DNA from: Hydrolagus colliei
Lineage: Eukaryota
Assembly (NCBI GenBank): GCA_035084275.1
Contig: CM068750.1
Location: 9,734,001 to 9,798,000 of the forward strand
Length of the DNA stretch: 64,000 bases
Direction: 5' to 3'
A program made the translations under genes and the position numbers. Positions 5,697 through 50,286 of this stretch are shown piece after piece. Position 1 is the first letter of the stretch; the number at the start of each line of letters is the position of its first letter. Below the pieces are notes generated by a model. The model saw only the letters and a list, made by a program, of their open reading frames with translations. It searched no databases and had not been told where the DNA came from.

Positions 5697-5936
<240 letters not shown>

Positions 5937-24777: not shown

Positions 24778-24854
24778 CATCCATACCCATCAGAGGAGCA
24801 GAAGAAACAGTTAGCCCAAGACACAGGACTCACAATCCTACAAGTGAACAACTG
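24778..24854 (+). CDS. MEIS2: MEIS2 internal exon (~exon 9): TALE loop and helices 2-3
   Basis: tgtgcag acceptor ends 24777; 77 nt encoding HPYPSEEQKKQLAQDTGLTILQVNN(W); gtgagt donor at 24855, phase 2. The ORF track shows this region in a different frame. Confidence 0.97.
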
Positions 24855-45308: not shown

Positions 45309-45367
45309 GTTCATTAACGCCAGAAGAAGAATAGTACAACCCATGATTGACCAGTCAAATCGAGCAG
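45309..45367 (+). CDS. MEIS2: MEIS2 internal exon (~exon 10): end of recognition helix, GC-AG donor
   Basis: Long pyrimidine tract and tttttcag acceptor; 59 nt encoding (W)FINARRRIVQPMIDQSNRA; ends CAG|gcaagt, phase 1, compatible with the next exon. Confidence 0.95.
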
Positions 45368-46466
45368 GCAAGTCCCAAGTAGTAACTGTATTCAAGTCCC
45401 ACAGGCGCAAATCCTCATCAAGTTATTCTTCAGGAATTCCTTCACCTGGTAAATAAACTGGCAACCAGGTATTCTGGGGTGCTTGTGGTCCCAGAATTCC
45501 AGTGTTGGGAGCAACCTCACTAATTGGTGCTAATTGGAAATCTTCCACCCTCACTTTACTAAGCGGCTTTTATTTGTAAAAGGGTAATTGGTCACATGTC
45601 TTCACACCCGAAGCAGCATGTGTGTTTGTGTGTTTGTTTCTTTCTGCTGCTGAATCGTTGCTTCTCTTTTGCCCTGGCACTAATGCCTACCTTGCTATCA
45701 CAACTCCTTGATGCAAGCACTTATTTAGTTCAGTGCTGCTAGTGTTTACCACTATTAATGATATCTTCACCACTGTTTAAATGATTCCAGTTAGAGCTCA
45801 TATAAACACAGATAATGAAACTGCATTTTCTGTTCACCGGGTCTGTTTTGGCCATTTGAACAGGACATCTCATTTCCTGTTTGCCTGCAAAGTACATTCT
45901 TCCAACAGTTTTAGCTGGATGTTATAACATTGCTTTTGTTTATGAACCCCATTGGAAAATCTATAAAAAAAGTCTGATTTGATTTCCCCAAAATCTGAAT
46001 TTAATTTTGTTTTTGTTCCTAATCAAAGCACATTTCCTTGTGCTTCACCACGGAGTTGTGTTTTTCTGCAATGGTTTGGGAAACGCCTTTTCTAAATATT
46101 GGTTGTAATTGTTGTCATTCTGAGTGCTTGTATTCAGTGTTAATTTCTGCCTGGTGCTTTGCTTAAGACATTATAAACTTATTTATGTGAATTTTACACA
46201 ACATGTCCAAAATGCTCCTCTCTGGCCTTTTAGTGCAACTTTGCAATTTGAAAAAAAATAGCATAGTGTGAAACCAAATAAAAAGGCCAAACATCATAAA
46301 CATTTGTTGTGCTAGCCAATAAATAGCTATGAGTTTATTTAAAGGGAAAGGAGGAGTAAGCCTGACTCCTGTCTAATAAAACCCAACAACATTCTTACAA
46401 CATGAGATGTTTTGTAACCTAATTACACAAAATGCAATGACATAGAGTTAAAATAGAGTGGGACTG

Positions 46467-47143: not shown

Positions 47144-47254
47144 GTTTTCTTCTTGATCCTTCAGTGAGCCAAGGAGCAGCATACAGTCCAGAGGGCCAGC
47201 CAATGGGAAGTTTTGTATTGGATGGTCAACAACACATGGGAATTCGGTCTGCTG
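47144..47254 (+). CDS. MEIS2: MEIS2 exon ~11 with tandem acceptors at 47144 (long) and 47165 (short, lacking GFLLDPS)
   Basis: aatcag|GT TTT CTT CTT GAT CCT TCA G|TG AGC...; encodes (G)[36 protein letters not shown]; gtaagc donor at 47255. Confidence 0.95.
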
Positions 47255-49999: not shown

Positions 50000-50286
50000 G
50001 TTTACAAGGCATGCCAGGGGACTTTGTATCTCAGGGTGGTCCTATGGGTATGAGTATGGCACAGCCAAGTTACACTCCTCCCCAGATGACCCCGCACCCT
50101 GCCCAGTTAAGACACGGACCCCCAATGCATTCATATCTCCCAAGTCACCCACATCACCCATCCATGATGATGCATGGAGGACCCCCGCCTCACCCTGGAA
50201 TGCCAATGTCAGCACAAAGCCCCACAATGTTAAATCCTGTAGACCCCAGTGTGGGAGGACAAGTTATGGACATCCACGCCCAATAG
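50000..50286 (+). CDS. MEIS2: MEIS2 last coding exon (long Pro/His/Met-rich C-terminus)
   Basis: tctttgcag acceptor ends 49999; (G)LQGMPGDFVSQGGPMGMSMAQPSYTPPQMTPHPAQLRHGPPMHSY...VGGQVMDIHAQ; TAG at 50284-50286. Confidence 0.96.

Follow-up and report, generated by a model that had tools for sequence, protein, structure and literature searches.

Directly downstream of exon 10 of the Meis2 gene of the cartilaginous fish Hydrolagus colliei lies an 81-nt stretch that is very probably the Meis "exon 10′", an ancient optional coding segment already described by Irimia et al. in 2011 (PMC3140891). Intron 10 of this gene is probably spliced from a proximal GC donor in most transcripts and from a distal GT donor in a minority of them, with the latter adding 27 residues after the homeodomain. 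Inclusion of the segment is probably low in Hydrolagus colliei, as in other vertebrates, and the peptide may serve as a basic linker, open to phosphorylation, that modulates regulation or the contact with DNA. In evolutionary terms the segment is not an "insert": it is ancestral sequence that has become skippable.

Splice-site layout at exon 10 of Meis2

The window, by which we mean the whole 64,000-nt stretch of DNA analysed, contains Meis2 exons 8 (5721..5867, ends approximate), 9 (24778..24854, start approximate), 10 with its extension, 11 (47144..47254) and 12b (coding part up to the stop codon, 50000..50286, placed by tblastn and sequence), all on the + strand and mapped by tblastn with shark and turtle Meis2 queries; no exon 12a was found in the sequence that could be read. 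The constitutive part of exon 10 (45309..45367, acceptor AG at 45307-08) encodes the end of homeodomain helix 3. Exon 11 has two acceptors, with first exonic bases at 47144 and 47165, 21 nt apart.

Intron 10 opens at 45368 with a GC donor (45368..45369), which is likely the default donor and whose context, CAG|GCAAGT, agrees at 8/9 positions with the U2 donor consensus. At an offset of 81 nt, and in the same phase, stands a GT donor (CTG|GTAAAT, 45449..45454, GT at 45449-50) that agrees at 7/9 positions and scores best among the five donor-like GTs listed in 45368-45480. Two hallmarks of exon 10′ are therefore present: the segment (45368..45448) lies directly 3′ of exon 10 in a Meis gene, as placed by tblastn, and it is bounded by two in-phase 5′ splice sites of which the upstream one is GC. 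A weaker in-frame GT inside the segment (45422, offset 54, 6/9) could yield an 18-residue variant.

Past the GC donor the reading frame stays open for 27 codons (basic, then Ser-rich), continues as Gly-Lys and closes at a TAA (45454-56), which sits inside an AATAAA (45452..45457) overlapping the distal donor. The GC donor, the in-phase GT donor 81 nt on and the TAA within AATAAA had all been claimed in an earlier sequence-only reading, and every coordinate it gave proved exact. From base composition an open run of 27 codons is expected by chance with p ~0.15, and openness alone is weak evidence; we judge the segment real because it is conserved in the Meis1 paralog and across animals, not because its frame is open.

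Probable identity with the published exon 10′

Irimia et al. describe an alternative donor within exon 10 of Meis genes, the upstream site being GC in 46% of the genes studied, and an exon 11 with a 21-nt alternative acceptor extension (PMC3140891). According to the same source, 10′ is uninterrupted coding sequence in non-bilaterians, is always included in nematodes and often in amphioxus and hemichordates, and has very low inclusion in vertebrates (zebrafish, frog, lizard, chicken and mouse); it has been lost at least nine times, with at least six losses in vertebrates, and its function was left open in 2011. The Hydrolagus gene is alike in the alternative donor internal to exon 10, the GC upstream site, phase 1, the conserved coding sense and the adjoining 21-nt acceptor pair of exon 11. 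We made the match from the text of that paper and from cross-checks (the exon 11 acceptor pair, the Saccoglossus and Nematostella peptide, and a 42-nt variant). Proteins of Saccoglossus, Nematostella, a nematode and a tardigrade carry a homologous 10′ peptide, which is thus kept as far as cnidarians, and a Glandiceps protein (P0119) has 13 residues vs 27, that is 14 codons fewer, in agreement with the intermediate hemichordate splice site, 42 nt shorter, reported in PMC3140891.

The main text of Irimia et al. has no match for "shark" or "Callorhinchus"; in the cartilaginous fish studied here, Meis1 and Meis2 each retain the segment intact. That text also has no match for polyadenylation, and the parts of it considered here say nothing of synonymous-site constraint. 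The pairing of a weak GC donor with a nearby GT donor resembles GC-AG alternative 5′ splice sites at large, and in human and mouse GC-AG introns are over-represented among alternative 5′ splice events (PMC7242645); that source, in the parts considered, treats the general class and holds nothing on Meis2.

Comparison with the Meis1 paralog

An exon 8 search of the genome gave four matches, two in Meis genes and two in others. The latter are homeobox genes, L008 (G000:C37:5059500-5069400) and L006 (G000:C6), whose translations look like Pknox/Prep, so that the comparison is between Meis1 and Meis2. The read-through after the exon 10 homolog of L008 is also basic and is not clearly homologous to 10′.

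The Meis1 paralog (G000:C3), whose exon 11 is identical to that of Callorhinchus Meis1, repeats the arrangement of the window: a GC donor, 81 nt, and an identical GT nonamer. The two genes agree at 64/81 nt in the segment vs 31/100 beyond the distal donor, past which intron 10 shows no similarity between the paralogs except simple repeats. Exon 11 of the window, for its part, shares a residue with Callorhinchus Meis2, and both agreements point to a probable chimaera-type cartilaginous fish. Intron 10 measures about 13.5 kb in the paralog (G000:C3:110333765-110347226; L007, L010, L014) vs 1.8 kb in the Meis2 of the window, and in the vertebrate genes tabulated by PMC3140891 it ranges from 0.09 to 1.8 kb.

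Synonymous codon differences between the paralogs number 3/14 in 10′ vs 44/79 in the pooled exons 8, 10 and 11 (23/43, 11/17 and 10/19 respectively; Fisher p=0.022), in a post hoc count that covers one paralog pair and 14 sites, excludes the donor-overlapping codons of 10′ and includes exon 8 as a control. Non-synonymous differences amount to 9/23 in 10′, 0/18 in exon 10, 2/47 in exon 8 and 8/29 in exon 11, and the argument from synonymous sites is limited by exon 11, where such change is just as frequent. Looser constraint on the protein combined with stricter constraint on the nucleotides is typical of alternatively spliced regions. Relative to the constitutive exons, 10′ has changed less at synonymous sites and more in its amino acids, from which we infer that RNA-level signals setting donor choice may account for part of its persistence; the lower synonymous divergence suggests such a role, and codon bias or chance could also give it. 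Window positions 45385-45399, within a run of codons identical base for base in Meis2 and the Meis1 paralog, contain a UGUA word (TGTA, 45387..45390), a candidate element 62 nt upstream of the AATAAA.

Inclusion and skipping in other species

Two protein searches were made, one with exon 10 plus 10′ (204 proteins, 120 of them listed) and one with a Meis1-type query (135 proteins, 120 of them listed), along with look-ups of 20 clusters (at most 15 listed members of each). The 294 proteins collected include several isoforms per species and were chosen for holding the segment, so that no inclusion rate is derivable from them; database isoforms are automatic models, and since most cluster members lie outside the listings, the protein sets cannot prove a truncated model absent.

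Spliced joins of exons 9 and 10 that enter the segment are present in 141 of the 294 proteins, and 63 of these 141 join exon 11 after exactly 27 residues; most of the others are irregular models or invertebrate forms in which the length differs, and not one of the 141 terminates at Gly-Lys. The 27-residue join is seen in Meis2 models of Chiloscyllium, Hypanus, Pristiophorus, sturgeon, turtle and birds. Predicted shark and ray Meis2 isoforms (P0005, P0123, P0125, P0141) join the segment to either exon 11 acceptor, with P0005 showing 89% identity to the window over exon 10 and 10′; these are automatic models of other species, and among those listed none ends at the distal donor. Within a shark and ray Meis2 cluster of 52 members, 3 of the 15 listed include 10′ and 12 skip it; 10′ is likewise missing from P0134, the single Callorhinchus Meis2 model among those listed.

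Some Meis2-type 10′ segments are degenerate yet open (P0013, P0022, P0044, P0061); one of them, P0044, comes from a wolf Meis2 model with 10′ included, although PMC3140891 reports that coding sense has been lost in mammalian Meis2. Frame shifts within or after 10′ occur in ray Meis2 models (P0070, P0136, P0138 and P0140, from Mobula birostris and Narcine), which suggests either decay of the segment or assembly errors.

These comparisons bear on the rest of the sequence-only reading. Its mention of similar extensions in predicted vertebrate Meis isoforms was right, and the distal donor is kept in the paralog and in the models of relatives. It had also envisaged three outcomes, of which normal splicing and the 27-residue in-frame insert are borne out (PMC3140891; shark, ray, sturgeon, turtle and bird models), whereas the stop/AATAAA outcome is improbable: it is not conserved in the paralog, and none of the 141 proteins ends there.

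Alternative explanations

One possibility, to which we give a minor share of belief, is that the segment is a vestige: the distal donor would hardly be used here, and the sequence would be kept mainly for regulation at the RNA or DNA level, as signals for splicing at the weak GC donor or as an overlapping enhancer. Low synonymous and high non-synonymous divergence between the paralogs would fit, as would the very low inclusion and the at least six losses in vertebrates (PMC3140891). Against this, both paralogs, as well as models ranging from sharks to mammals, retain the length of exactly 27 codons together with the distal donor, and several positions (throughout the first half and at Lys-15) hardly vary among 29 distinct vertebrate-type segments; nor does folding of the segment as RNA give unusual stability in either paralog (z -0.32 and +1.02).

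It is improbable that the main function of the segment is to supply an extra nuclear localisation signal (NLS) or PKA site. Although 25/29 of the distinct vertebrate-type segments have at least 3 basic residues in the core and 20/29 contain [RK][RK]x[ST], none of the 29, nor the segment of the window, matches the K-K/R-x-K/R core, and RRxS/T is found in 9/29; canonical full-length MEIS1, moreover, is described as having an NLS of its own, one missing from the homeodomain-less form (PMC13379096), and responsiveness to PKA has been mapped to the C terminus (PMC2707216).

The third alternative is a composite terminal exon, in which neither donor is used and cleavage after the AATAAA gives a Meis2 ending 29 residues past exon 10; we consider it unlikely. 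Such a protein would keep the Pbx-binding domain and the homeodomain, lose the activation region and dampen Meis targets, and we infer that it could act as a dominant negative. By the same account, 10′ would survive despite rare inclusion as a double-duty terminal exon, where splicing and cleavage compete at the overlapping donor and AATAAA to give a DNA-binding Meis without its activation region; this, too, we hold to be quite unlikely.

The stop codon itself may have a simpler origin, as it would arise from the letters of the donor: in phase 1, G|GTAART reads Gly-Lys-TNN, and a frequent stop at Gly-Lys is expected for that reason. In the window, 5/13 occurrences of GGTAART run on into a stop. 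Among 19 vertebrate-type read-throughs (invertebrate ones left out), Gly-Lys is followed by a stop in 9, by Tyr in 8 and by Trp in 1, all of them (18/19) compatible with T-initial codons, and one is a Gly-Asn-Lys case. The stop and signal are not conserved: the paralog reads Gly-Lys-Tyr with AATACA in place of AATAAA and the stop is absent in 10/19 read-throughs.

The word AATAAA occurs 61 times on the + strand between bases 1 and 50300 (1.2 per kb), including 5 times in intron 10, and GTAAAT in the window continues as AAA in 5/36 cases and is followed by some listed hexamer variant in 14/68. The hexamer at 45452 is canonical, with one UGUA 62 nt upstream, 12 GT/TG steps downstream and no TTT run. 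In favour of cleavage there, it is the only one of the 5 in intron 10 with a UGUA at most 100 nt upstream, and its 12 downstream GT/TG steps compare with a mean of 6.85 and are reached at 4/60 AATAAA sites; AATACA, the form in the paralog, is a weak poly(A) hexamer variant and also speaks for this alternative; the downstream context of the paralog, A-rich and not GU-rich, speaks against it. The AATAAA at 45452 is not beyond chance, and the truncated form put forward in the earlier reading probably results from the letters of the splice site.

Retention of the intron without cleavage would place a stop upstream of further exon junctions, and a transcript of that kind is likely a target of nonsense-mediated decay. 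The meis1 models of 10 teleost species (P0112, P0161-P0168, P0256) do read through the distal donor, to end 32-63 residues beyond exon 10, but their tails run in differing, unconserved frames, as unspliced-intron models would, and such artefacts explain them no less well than a genuine last exon. Two published observations also speak for a terminal exon: genes with GC-AG introns have more alternative last exons (PMC7242645), and the C terminus of MEIS1A, which truncation would remove, carries a PKA/TORC-responsive activation domain (PMC2707216). A truncated, homeodomain-ending Meis form was not found among the papers listed in a literature search by title and start of abstract, with most subscription journals outside its scope. 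Known homeodomain-less Meis isoforms are alike in being truncated with altered function (PMC13379096; PMC3157405), but they lack the homeodomain, whereas in the form considered here it would be retained and the loss confined to the C terminus; the main text of PMC13379096 mentions neither exon 10 nor intron 10, and the parts of PMC10735318 and PMC4901127 considered hold nothing bearing on the segment.

Significance

Exon 10′ is real and already known as an optional segment; the synonymous-site signal between the paralogs is one small new point, suggestive of constraint on the RNA. A terminal-exon role, if true, would answer the question of function left by PMC3140891 and would explain both the synonymous conservation around the UGUA and the teleost meis1 read-throughs, and the truncated form, if real, would be a built-in Meis attenuator, relevant to work on patterning and leukaemia. 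For the preferred reading, that of an ancient and optional exon 10′, the new data point is a cartilaginous fish in which both paralogs keep the segment intact, and it follows that the losses reported for Meis2 of mammals, frog and zebrafish came about secondarily.
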